Source: Candidatus Omnitrophota bacterium
GTDB taxonomy: Bacteria; Omnitrophota; Gorgyraeia; 2-01-FULL-45-10
Direction: 5' to 3'
DNA: 64,000 bases
NCBI GenBank assembly: GCA_041648975.1
Contig: JBAZNZ010000001.1
Coordinates: 40,961-104,960, forward strand
The position numbers were made by a program, and so were the translations under genes. Shown piece after piece: positions 9,053-59,471 of the stretch; position 1 is the first letter of the stretch; the number at the start of each line of letters is the position of its first letter. Under the pieces are notes generated by a model. That model searched no databases. It saw only the letters and a list, made by a program, of their open reading frames with translations, and had not been told where the DNA came from.

Positions 9053-9129
9053 GGGGACGTAGTTCAGTTGGTTAGAACGTCAGATTGTCGATCTGAAGGT
9101 CGCGGGTTCGACCCCCGTCGTCCCCGCCA
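9053..9129 (+). tRNA. tRNA-Asp (anticodon GTC), integration target of the island
   Basis: Acceptor GGGGACG/CGTCCCC, anticodon arm TCAGA-TTGTCGA-TCTGA, T arm GCGGG-TTCGACC-CCCGT, CCA encoded. The 3' 19 nt are repeated at 19436-19454. Confidence 0.85.
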
Positions 9130-9133
9130 TATA

Positions 9134-9165
9134 TAGCCGAGGGTAACACCTCGGCTATCTTTTTT
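9134..9165 (+). terminator. rho-independent terminator immediately after tRNA-Asp
   Basis: TAGCCGAGG-gtaaca-CCTCGGCTA stem-loop followed by TCTTTTTT. Confidence 0.6.
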
Positions 9166-9258
9166 ACGTCGGAGATCCTATTTGTCGTCGAGAAATCGTC
9201 GAGAGATAGGATTTTTTGTTTTCATGGCATTCTTGGAAATCTTGGTAATTTAGACACA

Positions 9259-9282
9259 TTTTGTCACGCGCTGTCACGCTGC
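9259..9282 (+). repeat. left arm-type repeat (TTTTGTCACGcgcTGTCACGCTGC), likely an integrase arm-binding site
   Basis: Direct TGTCACG repeats, and nearly the same 24-mer recurs at 19364-19387 near attR. Confidence 0.5.
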
Positions 9283-9398
9283 TACCCCACCGTCATTGCG
9301 AGGGCCGACCTGTCCTCCGAAGCTCGAAGAGCGAAGGAGGAAGGCCCGAAGCAATCTAATTCCCCGGGGATTGCCCCTATTTTTATAGAGGTAGCCCC

Positions 9399-9860
9399 AT
9401 GAAAGGCTACCAATTCCTTGAAAATGACTTCTTTGAACTTTGCCAGACCCGGGAGATAGGCCATACGCCTATGCTTCTCTATATCTACCTCAGAGGCCTA
9501 TTCTGCCGTTTCCAAAAGCCGATCTTTACCTGGCAGGACAAACAAACAATAAAACACCTCGGCATATCTCAAAGCACCCTCCTTAGAGCCAGGGAGTACC
9601 TCCAGACGCGGGGAATGATTAAATATGTGAGCGGCAAAGGCAGTCGGCATACCGAATATACCATGCTCGGCACCGTCCTTTTACCTATCATCAAAAAGAC
9701 GACAGGGTATCGTTACGCCAAGCCCATAAGGTATCGTCAAAATGACGACACCAATAATACGAGTAAAGAAAGATTAAAGAATATAGTAGGGAATGAAATA
9801 TTTAAGGGTATAACCGAAGAAGACAGGGCCTTTTTAAGGAACAAGGGGCTCTATGATTAG
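9399..9860 (+). CDS. hypothetical protein, possible winged-helix DNA-binding (phage/plasmid-like)
   Basis: 153-aa ORF, first gene inside the island. The central region TIKHLGISQSTLLRAREYLQTRGMIKY resembles an HTH. No catalytic motif. Confidence 0.4.
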   Translation: MKGYQFLENDFFELCQTREIGHTPMLLYIYLRGLFCRFQKPIFTWQDKQTIKHLGISQSTLLRAREYLQTRGMIKYVSGKGSRHTEYTMLGTVLLPIIKKTTGYRYAKPIRYRQNDDTNNTSKERLKNIVGNEIFKGITEEDRAFLRNKGLYD

Positions 9861-10074
9861 CCCGTGGAGCCTCATAAGGTGTCTAATATATCCCAAAACC
9901 TATATACGGGTGGATGTAATTTATGCCGCGGAAACCACCAAGGCTGTGTTAATCATATTCGACGGCCGAAAAGCATGGATACCTAAGGCCTGGATTGCGC
10001 GGCTTAAACGGACAGGAGGCAGATCTATTAAGATTAAAATATCAGATTATCACTGGGCCAAAAAATTTGCGTAG
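9853..10074 (+). CDS. hypothetical small protein (73 aa)
   Basis: ORF overlapping the previous stop (ATGA-type junction), basic C-terminus, no motif. Confidence 0.3.
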   Translation: MISPWSLIRCLIYPKTYIRVDVIYAAETTKAVLIIFDGRKAWIPKAWIARLKRTGGRSIKIKISDYHWAKKFA

Positions 10075-10165
10075 CATAGCGTTAAGAATCTAAAGCTAGT
10101 TTATCCCTTATCTATGATAGATGGTGTAAATCGTAAATAAGCACTTTATAATCTACGATACTCAT

Positions 10166-10296
10166 AAATTACTAATAAATTACTAATATCTACTAAATTA
10201 GTAATTTACTTGACATTTTTTTATATATTATGTACACTTATAATTGCAATTAGGCACTAAATACTAACCAATTACTAATGAAAGCTAAATTAGTAA
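10166..10296 (+). promoter_or_regulatory. cluster of AAATTACTAAT/ATTAGTAATTT dyad motifs flanking a TTGACA promoter upstream of the island Fic gene
   Basis: Copies at 10166-10176, 10177-10187 and 10197-10207 (inverted), plus 10270-10279 and 10287-10296 (inverted). TTGACA at 10210-10215. Confidence 0.45.
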
Positions 10297-10330
10297 CGGT
10301 ATATCTTTTGTAACTAAATAGGATGAAAAA

Positions 10331-11722
10331 ATGAAAATACCTGAAAATGCGCCAAAATTGGAATCACTAAAGCCGGGATATTTTGAAAAATTGTTTGATG
10401 TTCAAAGCTCAAAAGAAATGTCTTATATTGCTACATTGGCAAATAAGGAATATCTTTATTGGGATAAATTCAAATATCTTAATTTTCCCGAAACCGTCCC
10501 TCCAGATCTTGCCTGGATATCTCTTAAATTGACGCGAAATTCTCAAATTAAGAAAATACCGCTTCGCGATACTAATGGCCGATATTTCGGATGCTGGCTT
10601 CCGGATGAGGTGTTAAAATATTTGCATGAAATTGATCAAAAAGCAAGCGGCCAGATTCTCGTTGACGATCCAATGACTCATGCAGGCGAGAAAGAGCGAT
10701 ATTTAATTAATTCTATAATGGAAGAAGCTATCGCATCCAGCCAACTTGAGGGGGCAGCTATTACAAGAGAAAAAGCAAAAGAGATGCTGCGATTAGGAAA
10801 AAAGCCGGTCGACATTGCCGAACAGATGATATTAAATAATTATATTACAATAAGGGGTATAAAAAAAATTATAGACAAGCCATTATCCCGAGATCTAATT
10901 ATTAAAATACAGGCCTCAATAACCAAGGATACGCTTGAGAACGCTGATGCTGTGGGACGATTTAAGAAAAAAGGTGAAGAATATCAGGTTGTTGACCAGG
11001 GCGATGGAGTAGTTTTGTTTGATCCGCCGCCGGTGGATGAGATCGACGAGCGAATACAGGCTTTATGTGATTATGCGAACGAAACAAAAAACGATACCTT
11101 TATCCATCCCGTAGTCAAAGCAACCATATTGCATTTTTGGCTTGCGTATATACATCCGTTTGTCGACGGCAATGGAAGAACGGCAAGAGCTCTATTTTAT
11201 TGGCACATGTTAAAAAACAATTATTGGCTATTCGAGTATCTGTCTATTTCGCGAATATTGTACCGAACCCCGGAACAATACAAAAGAGCATTCGTCTATT
11301 CAGAAATTGACGAACAAGATATGACATACTTTTTGATGTTTAATGTGCGTGCAATCGATCTATCTATAAAAAGCCTGCATTTATATTTAGCCAAGCAACA
11401 ACAAGAATTTCAGGAAACAGTCGGACTAATACGAAAATATCCCGGCTTAAATCATCGGCAATGCGATCTTTTATATCATGCAGCTTCTCATCCGCGAGCC
11501 CTGTACACTGTCAAGTTTCAACAGAACGTTCATAATGTAGCATACCAGACCGCCAGGACCGATCTTTTAGAACTTGAGAAAAAAGGGTTTTTATCAAAGA
11601 TAAAAGCAAAAGGCAAGGAGTTTGTTTTTGTCCCAGCGAAAGAACTTCACTCAAAAATTAAAAACTTACTAACAAGTAGAAATTCCCATAATGGGAATAG
11701 CCCAGAAAGTGCCCACCCATGA
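10331..11722 (+). CDS. Fic/DOC family protein (463 aa) with C-terminal winged helix
   Basis: Fic active-site motif HPFVDGNGRTARAL (HPFx[DE]GNGR). Confidence 0.8.
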   Translation: MKIPENAPKLESLKPGYFEKLFDVQSSKEMSYIATLANKEYLYWDKFKYLNFPETVPPDLAWISLKLTRNSQIKKIPLRDTNGRYFGCWLPDEVLKYLHEIDQKASGQILVDDPMTHAGEKERYLINSIMEEAIASSQLEGAAITREKAKEMLRLGKKPVDIAEQMILNNYITIRGIKKIIDKPLSRDLIIKIQASITKDTLENADAVGRFKKKGEEYQVVDQGDGVVLFDPPPVDEIDERIQALCDYANETKNDTFIHPVVKATILHFWLAYIHPFVDGNGRTARALFYWHMLKNNYWLFEYLSISRILYRTPEQYKRAFVYSEIDEQDMTYFLMFNVRAIDLSIKSLHLYLAKQQQEFQETVGLIRKYPGLNHRQCDLLYHAASHPRALYTVKFQQNVHNVAYQTARTDLLELEKKGFLSKIKAKGKEFVFVPAKELHSKIKNLLTSRNSHNGNSPESAHP

Positions 11723-11784
11723 CAACTAGGGTGGCGACAAAAGAAATGAGCGGAGGAGTTAGATGAGAGGAAGAGAAGGGTTTT

Positions 11785-12009
11785 ATGATAAAAATTGCTG
11801 ATAGAGATGTAGTGCTAATGTTTGCCGCAATTCCTATCGTAGTTATAGTTATGTCGATAATTACTTTTGGATTTATTAGCCCCTTTCCTAACCCGTCCAA
11901 AATAAGCTCAGCCATTATTTTACTGTTAATAATAGTTTGGATATTTTTGTTATCGTATCTCATTATCCGCTTCATCATTTGGGCGGTAAAGACATTACGA
12001 AAGAGATGA
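11785..12009 (+). CDS. small membrane protein (74 aa, 2 TM)
   Basis: Two hydrophobic helices. Its stop overlaps the ATG of the next small ORF (ATGA at 12006-12009). Confidence 0.35.
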   Translation: MIKIADRDVVLMFAAIPIVVIVMSIITFGFISPFPNPSKISSAIILLLIIVWIFLLSYLIIRFIIWAVKTLRKR

Positions 12010-12122
12010 AAAATAAGAAATTAGAGATAATGCTTATTTATCTTGCCATATTCGGCGTTCTATTGTTATTTGGATTATATGGAAGGTATATATTTGCGTT
12101 TATATTCCAAATCCCCAACTGA
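12006..12122 (+). CDS. small membrane protein (38 aa, 1 TM), translationally coupled to the previous ORF
   Basis: ATG at 12006 is in frame with the annotated ORF 11937..12122. MKNKKLEIMLIYLAIFGVLLLFGLYG is a single TM helix. The longer 61-aa form is also possible. Confidence 0.3.
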   Translation: MKNKKLEIMLIYLAIFGVLLLFGLYGRYIFAFIFQIPN

Positions 12123-12127
12123 GAAAA

Positions 12128-12173
12128 AATAGGGACAGCGCTCATTTTTCGCAAAATAAATAGTCGCTGATCC
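12128..12173 (+). repeat. island 46-bp repeat copy R1 (AATAGGGACAGCGCTCATTTTTCGCAAAATAAATAGTCGCTGATCC)
   Basis: Member of a 7-copy family, 27 bp before the start of the 12201 gene. Confidence 0.85.
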
Positions 12174-12200
12174 TAAATAAGATGAATATGGAGTAAGCGC

Positions 12201-13448
12201 ATGGCAAGGGATGAAGCATTGTTTTGTAGACTGGGTGATATGCATGATTTTTTGGAAAAGCAAAAGCTTGGATACAGAGCTGAGATCGAATGTTTAAATA
12301 GAGATTACATTTTAAAAGTCAGCGAACAAGATTTATGCAAAAGCCTGATAGATAAACATACCCTAGAAACGCCTGCTTTACATGATGACAAATTATATGC
12401 CCTACCCGCAAGAGACGCAAATATAGATGTAAGCGGTAGGTGTGATTATGCAATATCTAGGCGCGAGAGTCCTTATTATGTTAAAGGTACTTCTATAACA
12501 ATAGCCATTCCATTTGAAGGCGATGGACAATTTTTCGAGTTCAGCCCGTCAGTCTATACATCGTATTTTCCTCGAGGGGTCATAACAGACAATGAAATTC
12601 TTCTCACATATAACGGTGTAAACATGGAACCTGCAAAAGTCAAAAGTGAATACGAAAATGACGTGAAAATAATAAAGGAACATTTGAGATCCATCTCTAA
12701 CATGGTAAAGCAACACAATGGATTTATAGAATCAGAAACAAAACGGCTTGTTGCAAATCGAAAAGACAAAATATTAAAAGAGCATAATTTAGTAGCCGCT
12801 CTCGGAATACCGATAAAAAGGCGGGAAGATTCACCAGCCACTTATACTATTCCTACCGTTCGAAGAAAACCCAAAATAGAATTACCTAAGGTTGGGGGTG
12901 GTGTTTTTAAACCAGAACCCACATTAGCCGAAACCGAATATGAACATATCTTAAAAATAATACACGATATGGCATTGGTGCTCGAAAGAAGTCCACGCGT
13001 ATTTATCGATATTAAAGAAGAAAACTTGCGAACACATTTCTTAGTTCAGCTTAATGGTCAGTATGAAGGAAAAGCAACAGGAGAAACATTTAATTTCAAC
13101 GGAAAAACAGACATTTTAATTCGAGATGACGGAGGAAATATATTTATTGCAGAATGTAAATTCTGGACTGGAGACAAAGGATTTACGGAAACAATAGACC
13201 AACTTTTAAAATATGTAACTTGGCGCGATACCAAAACGGCAATCATTCTTTTTAATAGGAACAAAGAGCTCTCATCTGTTTTATCAAAAATACCAGAGAT
13301 TGTAAAATCTCATAAATGCTTCAAGCGCGAACTTGGTAACAAAAATGAAACGTCTTTTAAGTATGTCTTTCAGCAACCTAGCGATTTGAATAGGGAATTA
13401 CTTTTAACAGTAATGGTGTTTGATGTACCAACAGAATTTAAAAGCTAA
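12201..13448 (+). CDS. PD-(D/E)xK nuclease-fold protein (415 aa), possible standalone defence nuclease
   Basis: C-terminal region E-x(n)-D-x(n)-ECK: KTDILIRDDGGNIFIAECKFW, a restriction-endonuclease-like core. N-terminal 250 aa have no recognisable domain. Confidence 0.45.
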   Translation: MARDEALFCRLGDMHDFLEKQKLGYRAEIECLNRDYILKVSEQDLCKSLIDKHTLETPALHDDKLYALPARDANIDVSGRCDYAISRRESPYYVKGTSITIAIPFEGDGQFFEFSPSVYTSYFPRGVITDNEILLTYNGVNMEPAKVKSEYENDVKIIKEHLRSISNMVKQHNGFIESETKRLVANRKDKILKEHNLVAALGIPIKRREDSPATYTIPTVRRKPKIELPKVGGGVFKPEPTLAETEYEHILKIIHDMALVLERSPRVFIDIKEENLRTHFLVQLNGQYEGKATGETFNFNGKTDILIRDDGGNIFIAECKFWTGDKGFTETIDQLLKYVTWRDTKTAIILFNRNKELSSVLSKIPEIVKSHKCFKRELGNKNETSFKYVFQQPSDLNRELLLTVMVFDVPTEFKS

Positions 13449-13483
13449 AATGACCAAGCAAGTGAGTGTGTCTAATAATAAAA

Positions 13484-13529
13484 AATAGAGACAGCACCTA
13501 TTTTTTGCAAAATAAATAGTCACTAACTC
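13484..13529 (+). repeat. island repeat copy R2 (diverged: AATAGAGACAGCACCTATTTTTTGCAAAATAAATAGTCACTAACTC)
   Basis: Same family, 33 bp upstream of the 13563 ORF. Confidence 0.8.
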
Positions 13530-13562
13530 AAATTGGCAGAAAATAATATTAGGAGATAAAAA

Positions 13563-13781
13563 ATGGAAATAAAAGAATCTGCTAAAGAAATAACTAAAAA
13601 AATGGACTTTATTTCAGGGGAAATAGCAACTTTTAAAGAAGCTCTTTGTACAATTATCGATAAAGCAAATAATACAACCGATAAAATGTTTTGGGCTTCA
13701 ATAATATATTTTTTAGGCAGCCTTATTCTTTCGGGGACTATTGCTTTTGCCGCACTAGTCCAAGCGAAGATATTAAGATGA
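13563..13781 (+). CDS. small protein (72 aa) with a C-terminal TM helix
   Basis: Hydrophilic N-terminus, then IIYFLGSLILSGTIAFAALV TM segment. Confidence 0.35.
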   Translation: MEIKESAKEITKKMDFISGEIATFKEALCTIIDKANNTTDKMFWASIIYFLGSLILSGTIAFAALVQAKILR

Positions 13782-13812
13782 TCTATGCAAAAAAGGCGAA
13801 TGGTTAGAAATG

Positions 13813-13855
13813 AGGAACGGTGTCTATCTTTTGCAGAATAAATAGTCGCCGACCC
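13813..13855 (+). repeat. island repeat copy R3 (diverged)
   Basis: AGGAACGGTGTCTATCTTTTGCAGAATAAATAGTCGCCGACCC, 34 bp upstream of the 13890 ORF. Confidence 0.75.
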
Positions 13856-13889
13856 GATTTAGGATTTTACTCAATTCCATCTAATAATT

Positions 13890-14642
13890 ATGGCTATTAA
13901 TTTTAATTCTATAAGAAATTTTATAAGGTATGGAGTAGATGTTAATAAACCTTTTTTAAAACTGTATGATATAGAAAAATTACGGCTTGATATAGAAGGG
14001 CTAAATCATAATATCAAAACGATCGATTATTATATGAGATCAGACCTTGACCCAGAGAATTTTTATTTAGAGCCAAATAAAGAGTTTTATAAAATGACAT
14101 TAAATGCCCAGGCAAATGTTATGCTGAACAGAATTGGATTTTCTCAAATTGATTGCCTAGTATGTTTTAGTAAAATTAAAGGAGCGGGACTTTTTATTGA
14201 AAAGCCAATCCCGTCTTTTAATATAAATGATAAAAGCCTATCATGGTCCAATAAAAATATTTCTCTCGAAATACAAATTTCATCTGCATTTAGAAATAAC
14301 CCTTTAATCATATCTGGAATTTTAGCGCATGAAATAACACATTTTTATTTTAAAAAGAAAAACTTAGGTAAATTATTCGATGCAAAAATTTCAGAAGAAA
14401 ATAATTGTGACCTGTCATCATTTTTGCTTGGATTTGGTAAGTTTGTTCTTAATAGTATTGGAGAGACAGGTAGAAATAGCGCTGATGCGGCAATTAAAAT
14501 AAAACATTATTTACCATGGTATTACCTTTGCTATATTTATGAAACGATAAATAGGATAAAAGCAATCTCAGAGGATATTTCGCAAAAAAATCTTACCAAT
14601 AGAGCGCTGAGTATGCTGTATGAGATTAACAGATGTTTTTAG
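13890..14642 (+). CDS. hypothetical protein with an HExxH zinc-metallopeptidase-like motif (250 aa)
   Basis: ILAHEITHFYF contains HEITH (HExxH). Asn/Lys-rich, no signal peptide. Confidence 0.4.
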   Translation: MAINFNSIRNFIRYGVDVNKPFLKLYDIEKLRLDIEGLNHNIKTIDYYMRSDLDPENFYLEPNKEFYKMTLNAQANVMLNRIGFSQIDCLVCFSKIKGAGLFIEKPIPSFNINDKSLSWSNKNISLEIQISSAFRNNPLIISGILAHEITHFYFKKKNLGKLFDAKISEENNCDLSSFLLGFGKFVLNSIGETGRNSADAAIKIKHYLPWYYLCYIYETINRIKAISEDISQKNLTNRALSMLYEINRCF

Positions 14643-14659
14643 AAAATTAAGAATACCGA

Positions 14660-14691
14660 AAATTTTTCGCAAAATAAATAGTCGCTGACCC
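14660..14691 (+). repeat. island repeat copy R4 (5'-truncated; no ORF follows before R5)
   Basis: AAATTTTTCGCAAAATAAATAGTCGCTGACCC lacks the GGGACAGCGCCC left part. Confidence 0.75.
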
Positions 14692-14744
14692 TAATTATTC
14701 TACATTGCCACCTCATGAAGGTATGAGAATACCTATAAGGAAAA

Positions 14745-14790
14745 AATAGGCGCAGTGCCCATTTTTCGCAAAATAAATAGTCGCTGACCC
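14745..14790 (+). repeat. island repeat copy R5
   Basis: AATAGGCGCAGTGCCCATTTTTCGCAAAATAAATAGTCGCTGACCC, 53 bp upstream of the 14843 ORF. Confidence 0.85.
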
Positions 14791-14842
14791 CCTTAAACAT
14801 TTAAACATTAAAGCATTAAAGAGAAAAGAATTAGGAGGAGAT

Positions 14843-15106
14843 ATGAACAAAACGTTATTATTTATTCTGGCATTGTTTTTAGTTTTATTACCAAATGTCT
14901 GTTTTTCCCAAATAGATAGGGATATTGACAATGATGGCGTTTGGGATGCTGACAAGGGCGGAGTTGATAGAGACTTAGATAATGACGGAGTTTGGGATTC
15001 CAATCAAGGTGGCGTGGACAGAGATATTGACAATGATGGCGTTTGGGATGCTGACAAGGGCGGAGTTGATCGAGACTTAGACAACGATGGCGTGTGGGAT
15101 CAATAA
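14843..15106 (+). CDS. secreted Ca-binding-repeat protein (87 aa; signal peptide plus 4x DxDxDG loops)
   Basis: N-terminal signal peptide MNKTLLFILALFLVLLPNVCFS. Four DRD(I/L)DNDGVWD loops matching the DxDxDG calcium-binding motif. Confidence 0.55.
   Translation: MNKTLLFILALFLVLLPNVCFSQIDRDIDNDGVWDADKGGVDRDLDNDGVWDSNQGGVDRDIDNDGVWDADKGGVDRDLDNDGVWDQ
14921..15103 (+). repeat. near-perfect 102-bp tandem duplication inside the Ca-binding-repeat gene
   Basis: GATATTGACAATGATGGCGTTTGGGATGCTGACAAGGGCGGAGTTGAT recurs at 14921 and 15023 with a 102-bp period. Each unit contains two 51-bp half repeats. Confidence 0.8.
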
Positions 15107-15118
15107 GAAGAGTAGAGA

Positions 15119-15173
15119 AATAGAACAGCGCCCATTTTTCGCAAAATAAATAGTCGCTGATCCTAATTATCTG
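15119..15173 (+). repeat. island repeat copy R6
   Basis: AATAGAACAGCGCCCATTTTTCGCAAAATAAATAGTCGCTGATCC, about 47 bp upstream of the 15218 ORF. Confidence 0.85.
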
Positions 15174-15217
15174 TTAAAAAGAATTGATATGCTTAAGTCA
15201 ATAGCGGGGGTGTGAGA

Positions 15218-15481
15218 ATGGCTATAAAAGATATAAGAGATTTTACACTCGAAGAAATTGTAAATAAAGCCACGAAAGGAATGGTGCCTCAAGATACCGA
15301 TAAATCTGTCTCTATGATAAGCTCCGCAGATGTTCTTAAAATTGTTGCTGATTTCAAAATTGCTCAGAAGCAGGATGAGCTAAATACAAAATTAATTCGG
15401 CTTACTAAATGGCTTGTTATATTAACTATCACACTTGTTATTTTAACGATTATTTTAACTTACAAAACCGTCAATCCATAA
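15218..15481 (+). CDS. small protein (87 aa) with a C-terminal TM anchor
   Basis: ATG 15218 preceded by GGGGGTG. C-terminal LTKWLVILTITLVILTIILTY helix. Confidence 0.4.
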   Translation: MAIKDIRDFTLEEIVNKATKGMVPQDTDKSVSMISSADVLKIVADFKIAQKQDELNTKLIRLTKWLVILTITLVILTIILTYKTVNP

Positions 15482-15499
15482 GCAGGGTAAATAAGAGAA

Positions 15500-16639
15500 A
15501 TGAAACGAACTATCCTAGCAATAGTTTTTCTTTTCACCTTAGCCCTTACCAGTGCTGCTTACGAATCATCTCCTGCCCAAGTTACCGATATATCCGACCG
15601 AGCGTATGAAGGGGCGATTATAAAGCTGCTCGACAGCGCGAAGCAGTCGATAACCATATCGATGTACACCATCACGCTGGCAAGCGAGAAGCGCAATCCG
15701 ATATCGATGCTTCTGAATGACCTGTTGGAGGCGCGGTCGCGCGGCGTAGCGGTAACCCTCTATCTCAATACGCGGTTCAAAGGCGATAAGGATATCCGCG
15801 GTAACCTGGAACGAAATCCCGCACTCAAGAAACTGCAGGACGCCGGATGCGTGATACACTTCATGGCGCCGAACAAACGGCTCCACGATAAGCTTATCAT
15901 AGTTGACGGCCGGTACGTGGTAGAAGGCTCGACCAACTGGTCTCTCTCGGCGCTATTGGATAATTACGAGTCAGCTACATTGATAGATTCGCCGGGACTC
16001 GCGCGCGTAAAACTCATGCGGCTTCAGGCGATGGCGCTCGCCGGAGAAGAAGCTCCGGGAGCGCTCGAGATAAAGCGCTCATTATATTCGGATAAGATGC
16101 CTGCCGAAATAGGACTACCCGAAGTTCTTCTTACCGATAGGCGGTACTTCCCGAAAATGGTAACAGAGAGAGATGAGCGCGCTATGGACGCGTATCTAGT
16201 CTTGTCGGCTATCTCGGCCGCGGGTGGGGACAATGAATTTTTCGTGGATCTTGAGTCGCTGGCTGTCAGCCTGGGGCTCAAGGCAGACGCCACGGACAGC
16301 GATCTCAGGCGCCAGGCGATCCGCTGGCTGAAAGATCTCGATGAGAACTACAAACTCATAGAGGTCCGCTTCTTCCATGGCAAGGATGCTCATGTGAAAC
16401 TTGTCACGCTTGAGGGGCCCCGCTTCCGGATAGGTTCGGCGATAACGCTCCCTGCGACCGACGGCAAGCTTTCGGCGCGAGTCAAGTTCATGAGAATGAT
16501 TAAGGCATATCTCGATGCACGCGGCGAGGATATAAATGCAATCTCCGACTATGAGCTTGCCGGCCGGTTTTACGCCAGCCGGCGGATGTTTTGTGACGCG
16601 CGAAGGGACATGTTAAAAGGGAATATAGGGGAAAGATAA
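15500..16639 (+). CDS. secreted phospholipase D/nuclease-family (single HKD) protein, 379 aa
   Basis: Signal peptide MKRTILAIVFLFTLALTSAA. HKD motif HDKLIIVDGRYVVEGSTNWS (HxK-x4-D-x6-GSxN), then a C-terminal domain of unknown function. Confidence 0.65.
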   Translation: MKRTILAIVFLFTLALTSAAYESSPAQVTDISDRAYEGAIIKLLDSAKQSITISMYTITLASEKRNPISMLLNDLLEARSRGVAVTLYLNTRFKGDKDIRGNLERNPALKKLQDAGCVIHFMAPNKRLHDKLIIVDGRYVVEGSTNWSLSALLDNYESATLIDSPGLARVKLMRLQAMALAGEEAPGALEIKRSLYSDKMPAEIGLPEVLLTDRRYFPKMVTERDERAMDAYLVLSAISAAGGDNEFFVDLESLAVSLGLKADATDSDLRRQAIRWLKDLDENYKLIEVRFFHGKDAHVKLVTLEGPRFRIGSAITLPATDGKLSARVKFMRMIKAYLDARGEDINAISDYELAGRFYASRRMFCDARRDMLKGNIGER

Positions 16640-16655
16640 ATGAGGGGAGAGTAAT

Positions 16656-16814
16656 ATGGCTGACGGAGGATTCATAATAAAGTTTAACGGAAAAGAGATT
16701 AAGCGATGTTATGCGGTGGCGTTCGATTACGATGAATGGAAATATACGGTTAATGAGAAGGAAGAAAAAGCATTGCCACAAGATGTTAAATCCATTACTA
16801 TTGAGGTAGAATAG
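16656..16814 (+). CDS. possible small ORF (52 aa), unannotated in the 60-aa track
   Basis: ATG 16656 after GAGGGGAGAG. MADGGFIIKFNGKEIKRCYAVAFDYDEWKYTVNEKEEKALPQDVKSITIEVE, stop TAG 16812-16814. Confidence 0.25.
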   Translation: MADGGFIIKFNGKEIKRCYAVAFDYDEWKYTVNEKEEKALPQDVKSITIEVE

Positions 16815-16832
16815 TAATAAAATGAGATCGAA

Positions 16833-17612
16833 ATGAAGAAAACGCTTAAAGGTGATATATATTATTTTGTGGATGAATCGGGCGATCCCTGTTTCTATGA
16901 TAAGAACGGCAATTATATCGTAGGACAAGAAGGGTGTTCAAAAATGCTTATGCTTGGCTTTATCCAAACGGATGAACCTAAGCATATAAGAAAGGCTCTT
17001 GACGAGGTGCGGGAGAAAATTAAGAATGATCAGTATTTAAAAGAGATCCCATCCATTGAAAAATCATTGAAACATTTCCACGCTACCGATGACTGTCCAG
17101 AGGTGAGGCAGGCAGTATATAATTGTTTGAGCACGCTTAATTTTAAGGCCCAATTCGTGGTTGCACGTAAAATCGAAGGTGTTTTTAAGAAGCACGACTG
17201 CGATGAGAATAAGTTCTACGATTCGCTCATAGAGCATTTATTCAAAAACGTTCTTCACAGAGCGGAGACGAACCACATCTATTTTTCAAAGCGCGGATCC
17301 AGCACCAGGCAAGAGCCGCTGGAAAAGGCGATTGACCGCGCCAAGAATCAGTTTGAGAAGAAGTTTTTTATTAAAGTACGCTCTAACGTTGATATTCAGT
17401 CTCAGGTTCCTACAGGGGAGCCGTGTTTACAGGTAATCGATTACATGAACTGGGCCATACAGAGAGTATTTGTAAAGGGTGAGATGAGGTACTTTAATTT
17501 TGTGAAGGATAAGGTGAGTTTTGTCTGGGATATTTATGATACGGGCAAATACCCTAAGAACTTTTATAGCAAGGCGAATGAACTTGATAGCAAAAAAACA
17601 AGCCTTCTATAG
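16833..17612 (+). CDS. DUF3800 family protein (259 aa)
   Basis: N-terminal DIYYFVDESGD motif typical of DUF3800. Confidence 0.6.
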   Translation: MKKTLKGDIYYFVDESGDPCFYDKNGNYIVGQEGCSKMLMLGFIQTDEPKHIRKALDEVREKIKNDQYLKEIPSIEKSLKHFHATDDCPEVRQAVYNCLSTLNFKAQFVVARKIEGVFKKHDCDENKFYDSLIEHLFKNVLHRAETNHIYFSKRGSSTRQEPLEKAIDRAKNQFEKKFFIKVRSNVDIQSQVPTGEPCLQVIDYMNWAIQRVFVKGEMRYFNFVKDKVSFVWDIYDTGKYPKNFYSKANELDSKKTSLL

Positions 17613-17736
17613 CTAGGTGGTTTCCCACACACGGCATGACGCCGGCTTTCGCTATTAGAAGACTCGAGTATTAGTATACCCTAAAATAAACGCAAGTCAA
17701 GGGCTCTCATAAAAAATAAAATAATTAAAAAAGTAC

Positions 17737-17765
17737 TTGACAGATGCCCAAGCATATGCTATTAT
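17737..17765 (+). promoter_or_regulatory. sigma70 promoter (TTGACA-17-TATTAT) for a leaderless cI-like repressor gene, overlapping operator O1
   Basis: TTGACA 17737-17742, TATTAT 17760-17765, ATG at 17773 with no RBS. ATGCCCAAGCAT dyad at 17744-17755. Confidence 0.55.
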
Positions 17766-17772
17766 TTAAACG

Positions 17773-17952
17773 ATGACAGATCAGGAGATCGTAGGGAAGA
17801 TAGAGACATACCTGTCAAAGAATAATCTCCGGCAGTACGAGCTAGCAAAGCAGATAGGCGTTCCAGAATCAACGATTAATAGATGGCTGAAGAGAAAGAC
17901 TAAGATTTCGAACGCCTATAGAGCTGTGTTAAAGACAAAAGGGATTATATGA
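17773..17952 (+). CDS. small HTH (Cro/C1-type) transcriptional regulator, 59 aa
   Basis: NNLRQYELAKQIGVPESTINRWLKRKTKIS is an XRE-family HTH. Not in the ORF track (<60 aa). Stop TGA at 17950-17952. Confidence 0.6.
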   Translation: MTDQEIVGKIETYLSKNNLRQYELAKQIGVPESTINRWLKRKTKISNAYRAVLKTKGII

Positions 17953-17976
17953 TTTTTTTTGGATTCAAAATTAGCA

Positions 17977-18036
17977 TATGCCCAAGCATAAGACAATATT
18001 TTTTTGTCTAAAAAATGAGCATGTGCCAAAGCACAT
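17977..18036 (+). promoter_or_regulatory. operators O2 (TATGCCCAAGCATA, 17977-17990) and O3 (ATGTGCCAAAGCACAT, 18021-18036) upstream of xis
   Basis: Dyad-symmetric motifs related to O1, positioned between the repressor gene and the excisionase RBS (GGAGGTGGGAG, ATG 18054). Confidence 0.5.
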
Positions 18037-18053
18037 AACCATGGAGGTGGGAG

Positions 18054-18239
18054 ATGACGCTTGTAACGGCAAAAGAGGTGTCGGAGAAGTATAGCATTCC
18101 CCCGGGAACGGTCTATTACTATGTCTCAAGGAACGAGATCCCGCACTATCAAATAAGGGGCAGAAGAAAATTTAACCCTGTTGAAATAGAAAATTGGATC
18201 AACCAGGGGAGATCGAGTGTCAATTCTAAAGTTTGGTAG
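18054..18239 (+). CDS. excisionase/Xis-family DNA-binding protein (HTH_17-like), 61 aa
   Basis: YSIPPGTVYYYVSRNEIPHYQIRGRRKF is an excisionase-type HTH, directly upstream of and overlapping the integrase. Confidence 0.65.
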   Translation: MTLVTAKEVSEKYSIPPGTVYYYVSRNEIPHYQIRGRRKFNPVEIENWINQGRSSVNSKVW

Positions 18240-19287
18240 GATATACAGTCGGAACGACAGCCCGTTCTTATGGATCTGGTACTATGATGCCAACGGGAAA
18301 AGGCACAGAGAGAGCACCGAGACAAATAATAAGAAGCTGGCAGAGGAGATACTTCATAGCAGGATTATCGAATTTCAAAGCCTGCAAAACGGCAATAAGA
18401 CAGTCAGCGATATGCCGTATGCACATTTCTCAGCGGAATTTCTAAAGCACTATAAAGCGCGGTATCCCTATGAGACATTTAAATCTCACAGCAGCGCGGT
18501 CAATGAGTTCACCAAATTCTTAAACTTTGCCGGTATAAGCCGATTATCCGAGATCACGACGGCGGTAATAGATAAATATATTACATACCTGAGAGAATCA
18601 AAGGGGAATAGGGCCAATACCTGCAATAACCACCTGAAGAATATCAAAACCCAGTTCAATTTTGCGATCAGTCATAATTTAATGAGAGAGAATCCGGCCA
18701 AGAGTTGCCGGAAGGTCGAAGTAAACGACGCTAAGAAGAAGAGCGCCCTTTCGCCAGATGAATATAAGAGTTTTATGGCGATCGCGGAAAAGGAACACCC
18801 ACACTACTATCCGATATACTACACCTTTATCCATACCGGCCTTAGGTTTACGGAGCTGATCAAATTAAAGTGGCAGGATATCGACTTTGAGAATAAAGTG
18901 CTATGGATCATGAAGCCCAAGTGCAAGAAGAAGCCGGATTTTGTCAGTATGCACGATAGTCTTATAAGGACTCTGGAGGATTTAAAGAAAGAGAGCGACA
19001 GCGAATATGTCTTTACCGATGAAAAAGGCGAGCCGTTTGGATTTAGGACCCGGAAGATCATACGACGGCTGAAAAACATACTAAAAACGGCCAATATTGC
19101 CAGCATAAGCACCGTTCACGAGCTCAGGCATACACATTGCAGCTACCTTTTCAATATAGGGCTCAATACGCGAGAAGTCATGGAGCAGATGAGGCATACA
19201 GAGATGAGGACCACGGAAGGGTATGCGCATATATTTAGGCCGGAAGCCAATAGGAAAATAAAGAAATTGGAGAGGTTGGATCGATGA
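18217..19287 (+). CDS. tyrosine-type site-specific integrase (phage integrase family)
   Basis: Catalytic region TGLRFTELIKLKWQDI...ELRHTHCSYLF...TTEGYAHI (R...HxxR...Y), with an N-terminal SAM-like core-binding domain. Adjacent to attR. Confidence 0.85.
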   Translation: MSILKFGRIYSRNDSPFLWIWYYDANGKRHRESTETNNKKLAEEILHSRIIEFQSLQNGNKTVSDMPYAHFSAEFLKHYKARYPYETFKSHSSAVNEFTKFLNFAGISRLSEITTAVIDKYITYLRESKGNRANTCNNHLKNIKTQFNFAISHNLMRENPAKSCRKVEVNDAKKKSALSPDEYKSFMAIAEKEHPHYYPIYYTFIHTGLRFTELIKLKWQDIDFENKVLWIMKPKCKKKPDFVSMHDSLIRTLEDLKKESDSEYVFTDEKGEPFGFRTRKIIRRLKNILKTANIASISTVHELRHTHCSYLFNIGLNTREVMEQMRHTEMRTTEGYAHIFRPEANRKIKKLERLDR

Positions 19288-19320
19288 ATAGAGATTGCTT
19301 CGCTTCGCTCGCAATAACGA

Positions 19321-19344
19321 TAGGGCACACTAAAGTGTGCCCTA
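19321..19344 (+). promoter_or_regulatory. perfect 10-bp-arm palindrome TAGGGCACAC-TAAA-GTGTGCCCTA just after the int stop
   Basis: Seen directly. No T tract follows, so it may be a terminator-like hairpin or a protein site. Confidence 0.35.
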
Positions 19345-19363
19345 CAATACGATGGGATGGGAT

Positions 19364-19387
19364 TTTGTCACGAAATTGTCACGCTGC
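19364..19387 (+). repeat. right arm-type repeat (TTTTGTCACGaaatTGTCACGCTGC)
   Basis: Matches the left-end 24-mer at 9259-9282. Confidence 0.5.
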
Positions 19388-19404
19388 GAAAAATTCACAC
19401 CAAT

Positions 19405-19809
19405 TTACCGACGGAGAGACCACTTCACGTCACACACCCCCGTCGTCCCCGCCAATTGGTAAAGGGAGCGCTCGATAGATAATGTCGGAAGGTACCTTCC
19501 GACGAAAAATTTATCCGCCGCCATATAAAAGTAGTAACTGGTTAAATACCAGCCCTTTAGCCGTAACAAGTTGATAACACGACTGGTTACGGCTATTTTA
19601 TTTGTCTTGCGTGTTTTGAGAATTAGTAAGTTGACAGACGTCCTATTTAGCACGCTTGAAAGCATAGCTACATCATGTTCAGTGAATGCAAACGGTAATA
19701 TGTAAGAATGTTTCCTTGTTTTGAACTGGTGCCAAATTGGCACCAGTTCCTTCCATTCCTCATCGGTAAGTTGAAACATAAATTCTTTAGGAGATCTCAC
19801 GGGACACAT
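19405..19809 (-). pseudogene. N-terminally truncated ORF6N-domain protein whose 3' end runs into attR
   Basis: FMFQLTDEEWKELV...LPFAFTEHDVAMLSSVLN matches the conserved ORF6N core, but the about 40-aa N-terminal part typical of the family is absent. The last about 10 codons lie in attR/island DNA. Confidence 0.35.
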
Positions 19810-22569: not shown

Positions 22570-22660
22570 TTGACTACACCAAGGTTTATAGACGTCCTAT
22601 TTAGGTACACCCTGCAGAGCAGGGTGTCACAAAGTAGGACGTCCGCAGAGTTATAAACCC
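22570..22660 (+). promoter_or_regulatory. large nested inverted-repeat structure upstream of arsR
   Basis: GGTTTATA...TTATAAACC outer arms, GACGTCCTA/TAGGACGTC middle arms, CACCCTGC-AGA-GCAGGGTG inner perfect palindrome. The 15-mer AGACGTCCTATTTAG also occurs at 19634-19648. Confidence 0.4.
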
Positions 22661-45761: not shown

Positions 45762-45869
45762 TAGGCGTGGCAAGAAAGAGCGCAAATAAGAAAATGCTCA
45801 AGCATGGAGCGGTTGCCATTTGCAAAAAAGCGTGATATACTTTTTCTGCGGTCTTTATAACCATGAGGT

Positions 45870-50981: not shown

Positions 50982-51063
50982 TAGCCGCCCGTTACTGCCG
51001 GCAATCTTCGACAAAGGGAACTTTTCAGCCGCTTCAGGCTGTCTAAAGTAGTGAAAGGCGCGC

Positions 51064-51627
51064 ATGAACAATATATCGCAGGAGCTCCTCGCGAGGGCTT
51101 CGAACGGCGACATGGGAGCGTTCGAGGAGATATATAAAGCCTCTTCGGGGTTTGTCTATAACGTATGCCTCAGGATAACGCAGGATATACCCGACGCGGA
51201 AGAGGCGACGCAGGATGTTTTTTTGAAGATTCACAGGAACCTGAAGGATTTCGCGTTCCGGTCATCTTTCAAGACATGGATATACAGGATAGCTGTCAAC
51301 GCGGCGATTAACAGGTACAGGGTCTCAGCGAGGAATAGAGGAAGATATTTAAGCTATGACGAGGGGAGCGGGAACGACGCATTTCCGGTGGAAAGCCAGG
51401 TGTATGAATCTGCCGACAAGGAAGAGCGTAAAGCGATGGTCGACTCGCTCCTGTCGAGCTTAAGCGCGGAGTTAAGGTCATGCATAGTGTTGAGGGAGAT
51501 AGAGGGCATGGATTATAAAGAGATAGCCAGGACCCTGGATATACCTATAAATACGGTCCGCTCGAGATTAAAGAGGGCGAGGGAAAAGCTGCTTATATAT
51601 GCGGCGGGGGGAGGCGGTAGATCATGA
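51064..51627 (+). CDS. ECF-subfamily RNA polymerase sigma factor
   Basis: Regions 2 and 4 (FEEIY...VYNVCLRIT..DAEEATQDVFLKIH; ...MDYKEIARTLDIPINTVRSRLKRAR). Confidence 0.85.
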   Translation: MNNISQELLARASNGDMGAFEEIYKASSGFVYNVCLRITQDIPDAEEATQDVFLKIHRNLKDFAFRSSFKTWIYRIAVNAAINRYRVSARNRGRYLSYDEGSGNDAFPVESQVYESADKEERKAMVDSLLSSLSAELRSCIVLREIEGMDYKEIARTLDIPINTVRSRLKRAREKLLIYAAGGGGRS

Positions 51628-59355: not shown

Positions 59356-59371
59356 TTATTATAACAAGAAT

Positions 59372-59417
59372 AATAGGGACAGCGACCATTTTTCACAAAA
59401 TAAATAGTCGCTAACCC
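59372..59417 (+). repeat. orphan chromosomal copy (R7) of the island 46-bp repeat
   Basis: AATAGGGACAGCGACCATTTTTCACAAAATAAATAGTCGCTAACCC, 54 bp upstream of the 59472 ORF and 40 kb from the island. Confidence 0.85.
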
Positions 59418-59471
59418 ATTTTTGCAATGGTTATGACGCCGCGATGTACGATATGGGGATGTAATAGGTAG

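Follow-up and report, generated by a model that had tools for sequence, protein, structure and literature searches.

The stretch of DNA analyzed here (hereafter, the window) comprises 64,000 nucleotides of a Candidatus Omnitrophota contig and contains seven copies of a short intergenic element, six of which form an array within a genomic island at a tRNA-Asp gene. Copies of this element mark junctions between unrelated modules, and related islands hold different element-separated modules. When the window was searched for the 25-nt core of the element, TTTTYGCAAAATAAATAGTCGCYRA, with at most two mismatches allowed, seven matches were found, all on the + strand (core starts at 12146, 13502, 13828, 14664, 14763, 15136 and 59390), and 100 dinucleotide-preserving shuffles used as a control gave none. 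No further copy could be detected in the window with a profile built from all copies. The core search and the alignment of the copies confirmed what an earlier note on this DNA had reported about their number, their start coordinates and their division into four near-identical and three diverged sequences. Its description of the copies as intergenic and co-oriented with their neighbors, as well as the ranges it gave for the distances to the adjacent stop and start codons, also agreed with our results. On the other hand, the length of 46 nt proposed there was too short. Alignment with copies from other contigs extended the element to ∼56 nt, roughly RG-AAAAWTAGGGACAGCG-CCCATTTTTCGCAAAATAAATAGT-CGCTGACCCTATTTT. 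The consensus is an imperfect palindrome, in which inverted arms of at least 15 nt, with one recurrent A.A mismatch, surround a 24-nt center.

The array begins with R1 (12124–12179, + strand as for all copies), which is located 2–3 nt past the stop codon of a 38-amino-acid (aa) transmembrane (TM) open reading frame (ORF) and 21 nt before a PDC-S54-like gene. R2 (13480–13537) is diverged, with one core mismatch and a degenerate 3' arm, and R3 (13806–13862), with two core mismatches, is the most diverged copy of the window. R4 (14643–14697) has a perfect core and lies 1 nt past the stop codon of a 250-aa gene; R5 (14741–14796) comes next, with no gene between the two, and is itself 46 nt upstream of the gene for an 87-aa repeat protein. 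The last copy of the array, R6 (15115–15170), is followed by an 89-aa gene and then by a PLD-family gene, with no further copy. R7 (59368–59425) is an orphan in the chromosome, between an alpha/beta hydrolase gene and a 337-aa gene, and forms a good hairpin (z = −4.8). Over 55 nt, R1, R4, R5 and R6 are 82–85% identical, each being upstream of unrelated genes. R4 had been described as truncated at its 5' end. However, its 5' arm is present in a degenerate form (∼11 of 20 arm positions agree with R1, as read by eye), and the whole 55-nt copy is 82% identical to R1.

The window has a GC content of ∼52%, and a segment of 34–44% GC adjoins the tRNA-Asp gene. The last 19 nt of this gene (9111–9129, +, attL) are repeated exactly at 19436–19454 (+, attR), and thus the identical repeats at both ends delimit an island of 10.3 kb (9130–19454). 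Six of the seven copies fall in the island, that is, in 16% of the window (binomial p = 1e-4), and all six lie within 3.05 kb. The genes on the left of the island are syntenic with those of another Omnitrophota metagenome-assembled genome (MAG), L001, including a tRNA-Val and tRNA-Asp pair (57–68% aa identity; L numbers denote loci outside the window). Within the island, where the genes described here are all on the + strand, the left flank of the array is a Fic/SoFic-like gene (10331–11722) with a promoter-like site, TTGACA-17-TACACT, at 10210–10238. Two small TM ORFs follow, and then five units of an element and a gene together with the gene-less R4–R5 pair. The first cargo module encodes a 415-aa protein (12201–13448), which is a full-length match (E = 1e-150) to the candidate single-gene defense system PDC-S54. 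Modules 2–5 (13563–15481) encode a 72-aa TM protein, a 250-aa protein, an 87-aa TSP3-like repeat protein and an 89-aa protein, for which no family was matched. Backbone genes occupy the right of the array (15500–17612): a PLD-family (DrmC-like) gene, a 52-aa ORF and DUF3800. The PLD gene and the 52-aa ORF recur in sister islands, and DUF3800 recurs only in L012 and in one context without DNA. A protein of a MAG annotated as Candidatus Omnitrophota shows 100% identity to the PLD protein of the window. A maintenance module (17773–19287) completes the island and consists of a Cro/CI-type helix-turn-helix (HTH) gene, an excisionase-like HTH_17 gene (18054–18239) and a tyrosine integrase gene (18217–19287). 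The integrase and excisionase (Xis) of locus L017 are 94% and 92% identical, respectively, to those of the window island, indicating that these islands are one family.

Some additional features of the island and its surroundings were observed. Genes for 153-aa and 73-aa proteins are present at the left end (9399–10074 in the window and 4719–5394 in L020); their sizes and order are kept in L020 and L021 and no family was matched, and they are probably part of the island backbone. The 87-aa secreted protein contains three 51-nt tandem repeats (14915–15100; 73–90% identical) encoding calcium-binding-like D-x-D-x-D-G-V-W-D units and weakly matches thrombospondin type 3 repeats. Just beyond attR, a 21-nt direct repeat (90% identical; 19630–19650 and 22584–22604) brackets a low-GC segment that includes a second Fic gene (Fic_N plus a SoFic-like C-terminal domain) and an AAA_14/DUF4143 ATPase gene. 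This segment may represent another insertion, arranged in tandem with the tRNA-Asp island.

Outside the window, 12 further copies were found on five other contigs, which are of Omnitrophota type as far as could be judged, giving a total of 19 distinct copies. For database scans, we used a strict pattern, a degenerate 24-nt sequence covering all seven window copies. Among 185,579 species-representative genomes, it identified a single locus (L001), with only one match in that MAG. It also matched five metagenome contigs, one of which (L004) was a chance match and was rejected as a true copy: it is inside an ORF, lacks arms and lies on a contig of 29% GC. The strict pattern had no match in IMG/VR, three IMG/VR scans with shorter sub-patterns gave just two 18-nt chance matches that lacked the arms and the remaining core, and blastn against 50,697 phage and 72,556 plasmid records gave no match. 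A phage or plasmid origin was rejected on the basis of these scans. Contigs retrieved through the island Fic and PLD proteins added an array of five copies, L012. It should be noted that several of these copies fail the strict pattern, and the database counts are therefore lower bounds. The element family appears to be undescribed and to have a narrow distribution. An intergenic hairpin in L008 (5445–5499), AATAGGGTGAGCGGCC...GCCGCTGGCCCCGATTT, has an element-like architecture with a different sequence (nhmmer E = 0.004), in surroundings that are unrelated and not part of an island; a distant relationship is possible and would hint at a wider superfamily of such hairpins. We also observed that short assemblies start or stop in or beside copies (both ends of L011, 1–30 and 2595–2640; L013, 50–105; L006, 3189–3244). 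Assembly breaks are expected where an identical repeat of at least 31 nt is present, and they could also hide population-level variants of the arrays.

Three variants of the island could be compared. In L002, a Fic gene (68% aa identity to that of the window) is followed by an element, a 251-aa gene, a second element, a patatin gene and the PLD gene (55%). Downstream of a DpnI-like gene, L012 has one element each before a 365-aa gene, an OLD-like gene, a restriction endonuclease (REase) plus NucS gene and a set of 229-, 66- and 205-aa genes, and a fifth element after this set, upstream of PLD (73%), a 54-aa ORF and DUF3800. The element-separated genes differ among the three variants, with no cargo gene in common. 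Each array ends at PLD, and in none of them is there a copy directly before PLD. One rare gene family was found behind a copy in two contexts: the 232-aa protein of L001 and the 229-aa protein of L012 share 40% identity, and no other member of their family is present among 5.8e9 clustered proteins. Both genes have a copy directly upstream, and the upstream neighbors differ (Fic in L001 and NucS_C in L012). Thus, it is the downstream gene that the element accompanies. In L003, a GDSL lipase gene on the opposite strand has a copy on either side, with a bare 5'-arm fragment right after the preceding stop codon, and this unit of element, lipase and element precedes a gene with an element-free ortholog in the window. 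The partial copies break at differing points, as L012e2 lacks the 3' arm and the L003 fragment is a 5' arm only. No excess similarity could be observed within arrays when compared with that between arrays (permutation p = 0.78 for the 5' half, 0.57 for the core and 0.17 for the 3' half). This result shows that the copies were neither locally duplicated nor homogenized, and both in situ duplication and within-array homogenization were rejected on this test. Judging from these sequences, it looks as if each copy has its own history, arriving with its module.

All 19 copies are intergenic, and 18 of them are co-oriented with the downstream gene, whose start codon is 8–91 nt away (median ∼42). The 5' edge is no more than 14 nt from the upstream stop codon in 10 of 16 cases, and in copies e2 and e3 of L012 a TAG within the element serves as the stop codon of the upstream gene. 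The majority of copies (17 of 19) close all three forward reading frames. In three cases (R1, L001 and L012e1), the element lies too close to the start codon for another promoter to fit in. The cargo consists largely of stand-alone defense genes, such as PDC-S54, SoFic, OLD/GajA-like ATPase-Toprim proteins and a DpnI-like methyl-directed endonuclease; REase-ARP with NucS_C, a CBASS-type patatin and two methylases with an HNH gene are also flanked by copies, and several flanked genes match no family. In the loci examined, the copies fall between defense systems and never split one. A link of the element to Fic was rejected, as Fic genes in L007 (86% identical, in another Omnitrophota MAG), L008 and L009 have no element after them. 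The element is an optional feature of a subset of modules.

Folding of individual copies gave a mixed picture. Strong long hairpins were predicted for R7, L002a, L003b and L006 (−17 to −23 kcal/mol, z −4.8 to −6.4) and a weaker one for L003a (−15 kcal/mol, z −2.8), whereas R2, R3, R5 and L001 fold no better than shuffles. The arms pair in 71–74% of cells as compared with 30–44% in slid controls (14 and then 19 copies). However, this pairing was no better than in column shuffles (352/500 and 386/500), and compensatory changes were at chance level with both 14 and 19 copies; a conserved hairpin was rejected on the lack of compensatory evolution. The previous observation that the flanking pairing is lost in diverged copies was thus borne out. 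Read by eye, the alignment showed similar frequencies of changes giving G.U and of changes giving A.C on the forward strand, which favors neither strand as RNA. From these comparisons, the palindrome is a property of the consensus and decays in the resident copies. In contrast, the core is well conserved: divergence among the window copies was 7% in the core versus 20% in the arms (p = 7e-4). As it was computed on window copies, this difference is no artifact of how the external copies were found, and it indicates selection on the sequence of the asymmetric core. Such a core suggests a protein-binding site, and a sequence-specific site for some factor is possible. CpG hypermutability was considered as the source of the variable positions and was not significant (p = 0.33). 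No Rfam match was obtained at the gathering threshold for the window or at E ≤ 10 for positions 12000–15400, and known RNA families were rejected on this basis, including the pistol ribozyme, which had been considered because of an AAAUAGU...CCCUAA resemblance.

Neither a sigma70-type promoter nor a short-loop terminator was found by consensus scan inside any window copy, and no forward −35/−10 pair scoring at least 8/12 occurs at one position in more than 3 of the 19 copies. The only good promoter among the copies is in L012e1, in which the loss of two bases produces TTCGCA-18-TATAAT (10/12, sigma70). A weak pair on the opposite strand, TTGCGA-17-TATTTT/TAATTT (7–9 of 12), is present at one fixed position in ∼12 of 19 copies (alignment columns 46 to 16); transcription from it would be antisense, beginning at the stop codon of the upstream gene, and in L003 would be directed towards the lipase gene. 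Downstream of copy b of L003, a saccharopine-dehydrogenase gene has TTGCCA-N17-TATATT (minus strand, about 830–860), and its window ortholog (45870) has TTGCCA-N17-TATACT at 45813–45841 without any element. Since this promoter is kept both with and without the element, the element is not the promoter of that gene. Conservation of TTGCCA-N17-TATAYT across the two genomes, with 73% identity in protein, also implies that the lineage uses canonical sigma70 promoters. With regard to termination, the window copies do not have the features of intrinsic terminators, as their loop is ∼24 nt (versus 3–8 nt) and R1–R6 have no T-run. Terminal T-runs do occur in L002a, L003a, L003b and L006, which end in TATTTT, and in R7, which ends in ATTTTT. 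Thus, the absence of a T tract noted before is correct for the window copies and does not extend to better-preserved copies elsewhere, which end in CCCTATTTT(C).

Candidate regulators encoded in the window were also considered. The gene for an extracytoplasmic function (ECF) sigma factor at 51064 has a textbook promoter, GGAACTT-N17-GTCTAA, at 51017–51046, ∼18 nt upstream, and is probably autoregulated as judged from this motif. This sigma factor was rejected as a reader of the element, in which GGAACTT-N17-GTCTAA has no counterpart. The Cro/CI-type HTH gene at 17773 is flanked by three copies of a dyad, ATGCC(C/A)AAGCA(T/C) (17744–17755, 17978–17989 and 18023–18034), the first of which overlaps the strong TTGACA-17-TATTAT promoter of this gene (17737–17765). 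Sister islands L020 and L023, which have no element, carry the same dyad in the corresponding position, and this dyad is probably the operator of a lysogeny-like switch of the island. The HTH protein was rejected as a binder of the element, given that its own gene is flanked by this different dyad, conserved where the element is absent. Sigma54 and MerR-type long-spacer promoters were rejected by eye, as the spacing or the required dyad is absent. It had previously been suggested that the element defines a private regulon. In the form specified, this idea was not supported: there is no fixed sigma70 promoter, the ECF and HTH sites are different and the gene after L003b keeps its own promoter.

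The arrays resemble those of integrons in that at least two co-oriented sites separate ORFs (six within 3.05 kb in the window, with comparable arrays in L002 and L012). RYYYAAC/GTTRRRY boxes were not found, since the arms AAAAWTAGGGACAGCG and CGCTGACCCTATTTT lack AAC...GTT at their ends as read by eye. The island integrase falls far short of the IntI cutoffs, with 74 bits for TIGR02249 (265 required) and 38.8 bits for NF011946 (435 required); it belongs together with an excisionase and the tRNA-Asp att repeats, and is the only recombinase in the window island. It was rejected as a cassette recombinase because it is not IntI-like, its att core ACCCCCGTCGTCCCCGCCA is unrelated and its homologs are found in element-free loci. 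An integron attC site was likewise rejected as the identity of the element, as there are no R boxes, the island has no IntI and the pairing is not conserved. On the five external contigs, no recombinase gene was found alongside the element. Of the two views put forward earlier, the cassette-like one is favored by the variable arrays, the bracketed gene of L003 and the two-member gene family. Its attC analogy is architectural only.

We tentatively favor the hypothesis that the element is a module-boundary linker, which arrives with each defense module and marks exchange points, similar to promoter-early stem-loops (PeSLs). PeSLs occur in T4-type phages, where they have been proposed to link ORF cassettes and to be the sites of their insertion, deletion and exchange (PMC2839356, PMC4122927). 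Under this hypothesis, the linker would be a ∼56-nt composite, with a palindromic shell around an asymmetric, sequence-specific core, located at the 5' edge of horizontally acquired modules, for the most part single anti-phage defense genes. It would reside in the variable cargo region of tRNA-Asp integrative islands of Candidatus Omnitrophota and occasionally elsewhere in the chromosome. Modules made of an element and its gene or genes may circulate in a pool shared among Omnitrophota genomes, and may enter, leave and replace one another via recombination within the shared element. A circle or fragment with one or two copies would recombine with a resident copy, as in the PeSL cassettes of T4-type phages. 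We prefer such homology-driven exchange to a dedicated recombinase, since none accompanies the element. The intact element may also punctuate expression, closing upstream reading frames and, with its hairpin and T-run, insulating transcription, and its conserved core would bind a protein.

Several results weigh against this hypothesis. Frequent homologous exchange should homogenize the copies within an array, which was not seen, and the identical stretch of only ∼26–31 nt is marginal for RecA-type recombination. The copies of the window array have neither a T-run nor a short-loop hairpin, and a sigma70 promoter at a constant position is missing; given these scans, neither half of a PeSL-style terminator and promoter function is demonstrated. 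Conservation of the core where the arms have decayed points to a sequence-specific function in situ that is outside the linker model. In addition, five other PLD-anchored loci (L016, L020/L021, L022, L023 and L026) have no copy and their cargo is equally variable, and no substitute repeat was found in these copy-free sister islands and loci. L020/L021 and L023 carry the same Xis-integrase module without an element, and L020 is an entire sister island that adjoins the same pyrimidine-biosynthesis genes and shares the 153-aa and 73-aa genes of the left end. Thus, the element is not needed for cargo turnover. Finally, no element-bounded gain or loss could be mapped between close relatives; the only near-identical contigs recovered, L010 and L011, carry identical arrays.

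Other explanations should be weighed against the same data. It is possible, although we consider it doubtful, that the element is a cis-regulatory protein-binding site, namely a promoter or operator for a sigma factor or regulator that moves as the control region of each gene, like a 'putative mobile promoter'. Such a site would agree with an asymmetric, sequence-specific core whose conservation greatly exceeds that of the arms, also in copies that look old, with the position of 18 of 19 copies 8–91 nt upstream of a co-oriented start, with the retention of the element beside its downstream gene in L001 and L012 and with the lack of space for any other promoter after R1, L001 and L012e1. The 10/12 sigma70 promoter of L012e1 and the opposite-strand TTGCGA-17-TATTTT, fixed in ∼12 of 19 copies, point in the same direction. 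However, forward promoter pairs of at least 8/12 do not recur at one position in more than three copies, and the consensus scan gave no promoter inside a window copy. By eye, neither sigma54 nor ECF spacings fit (the ECF promoter of the window being GGAACTT-N17-GTCTAA), and the likely operator of the island HTH protein is a different dyad. A control region would also hardly be expected where the downstream gene has its own promoter, conserved in the window without the element (L003b), where a convergent gene follows (L003a) or where no gene follows (R4), and five other PLD-anchored loci carry cargo without it. More improbable, in our opinion, is a recombination site of a new, integron-independent system of cassette capture, in which a recombinase encoded in trans (Xer-like, another tyrosine or a serine recombinase) would recognize the lox- or dif-sized core, insert or excise circles of a site and a defense gene, and move such units between islands and chromosomal loci. 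The array evidence that suits a linker suits such a site equally, and the direct orientation of all copies within an array, the sharp 5' boundary preceded by RG, the empty R4–R5 unit and the heterogeneity of copies within an array, as for attC in mobile integrons, would also fit. The core can be read as 13-8-13, CAGCGCCCATTTT-TCGCAAAA-TAAATAGTCGCTG, with 10/13 arm symmetry and an asymmetric spacer that would set the direction. Its size is that of a tyrosine-recombinase core site, and one arm is better conserved, as in dif-like sites; by eye, however, the similarity to the dif consensus is limited to the left arm (7/11) and the spacer (4/6), which resemble a XerC arm and central region, with 3/11 in the XerD arm. 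Moreover, none of the five external contigs has a recombinase gene with the element, the sole recombinase of the window island is the tRNA-Asp integrase, whose close homologs occur in element-free loci, partial copies break at varied places rather than at one crossover point, and no array ends with a copy before PLD.

The remaining two explanations were judged less probable again. A selfish or neutral small palindromic repeat, similar to repetitive extragenic palindromes (REP/REPIN) or miniature inverted-repeat transposable elements (MITEs), which spreads in permissive intergenic DNA and is tolerated in islands, is quite improbable. This explanation could accommodate the imperfectly palindromic consensus, the patchy occurrence across sister islands and genomes and the decay of arms by uncompensated changes, mostly transitions by eye. 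The weak match at L008 5445–5499, of the same architecture in an unrelated intergenic region, is also compatible with it, and the uniform orientation of copies could follow the direction of replication rather than genes. Yet the copy number is low, with one copy in 54 kb of non-island window and one strict match in 185,579 genomes, and no target-site duplication was seen by eye at the junctions of the 19 aligned copies. No IS200/RAYT-type gene was found among the annotated genes of the examined loci, where not every ORF was scanned. It is also difficult to explain in this way why the core is selectively conserved relative to the arms, why copies lie between and not inside defense systems and why a rare gene family has the element beside it in different contexts. 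Very improbable is an RNA-level intercistronic hairpin in one long island transcript, which would act as a processing site or 3'-end stabilizer and make the mRNA fates of adjacent modules independent, like REP hairpins or the RNase III sites between genes of phage T7. The co-orientation of the whole array, with short gaps and downstream of the promoter-like site at 10210–10238, would permit such a transcript; intact copies fold strongly (z −4.8 to −6.4), and the element abuts upstream stop codons and closes the three forward frames in 17 of 19 copies. However, covariation is absent, the comparison of G.U with A.C changes by eye gave no strand preference, R2, R3 and R5 fold no better than shuffles, no Rfam match was obtained even at E ≤ 10, and the unpaired center is the best-conserved part.

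By analogy, PeSLs appear to be the closest functional precedent for the element, and defense cassettes in integrons the closest architectural one. Both PeSLs and the element are short, conserved, composite intergenic motifs with a stem-loop, found in hyper-variable regions together with unrelated accessory ORFs (PMC2839356, PMC4122927), and both occupy the space from a stop codon to the following ribosome-binding site. A consensus sigma70 early promoter and a terminator are the defining parts of a PeSL, whereas the element has no promoter at a fixed position, its window copies are not terminator-like and its conserved part is a 26-nt asymmetric core. The hosts also differ, being phages for PeSLs and a bacterial integrative island for the element, which was not found in IMG/VR or GenBank phages. 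Integron attC arrays, including attC clusters without an integron integrase (CALIN) and sedentary chromosomal integrons that serve as banks of defense cassettes (PMC4889954; bioRxiv 10.1101/2024.07.02.601686), share with the element co-oriented imperfect palindromes that separate unrelated genes, many of them compact anti-phage systems. In both cases, the upstream stop codon adjoins the site or falls inside it, the sites of one array are heterogeneous, and they can form clusters without a nearby integrase. However, attC conserves structure while its sequence varies, and the element conserves the sequence of its center while pairing is not maintained; the element also lacks RYYYAAC/GTTRRRY boxes, has no IntI in the island and tracks the downstream rather than the upstream gene, and the last unit of its array has no following site. 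Putative mobile promoters (PMPs) are a descriptive class without a mechanism (PMC3488235). The element agrees with the definition of this class, being a conserved non-coding sequence of 50–100 nt with at least 80% identity that precedes non-homologous genes, both in one genome and in different ones (PMC3488235), but promoter activity is unsupported by sequence here and one downstream gene has its own promoter. REP/REPIN sequences (with RAYT) and MITEs are also short palindromic intergenic repeats near the 3' ends of genes, with biased orientation and decaying copies; in contrast to them, the element has a very low copy number, is concentrated in one island, shows no target-site duplication and has a conserved unpaired center, and no associated transposase was seen among the annotated genes of the loci in a screen that was not exhaustive. 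In Xer-dependent (pdif) modules, accessory modules are likewise bounded by short recombination sites and the host recombinase is encoded elsewhere. Such modules have pdif sites in inverted orientation on their two sides, with a conserved XerD arm. Copies of the element, on the other hand, are direct repeats, and by eye the putative XerD arm agrees with the dif consensus at only 3/11 positions.

Defense islands have a mosaic makeup, but the routes by which single systems enter and leave them are known chiefly from integrons and a small number of prophage hotspots. In the present case, the module junctions of a defense-gene array in an uncultivated and poorly studied phylum are marked by a short conserved repeat without the hallmarks of integrons. 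If the element is a regulatory site, it would be a cross-genome control signal for acquired genes in Omnitrophota. If it is a new recombination site, libraries of defense genes would have been built by a route that evolved separately from IntI/attC. If it is an exchange point, it would represent a second, independent solution to the cassette-wise stockpiling of defense genes and would provide a simple sequence tag for harvesting new defense genes from Omnitrophota metagenomes.

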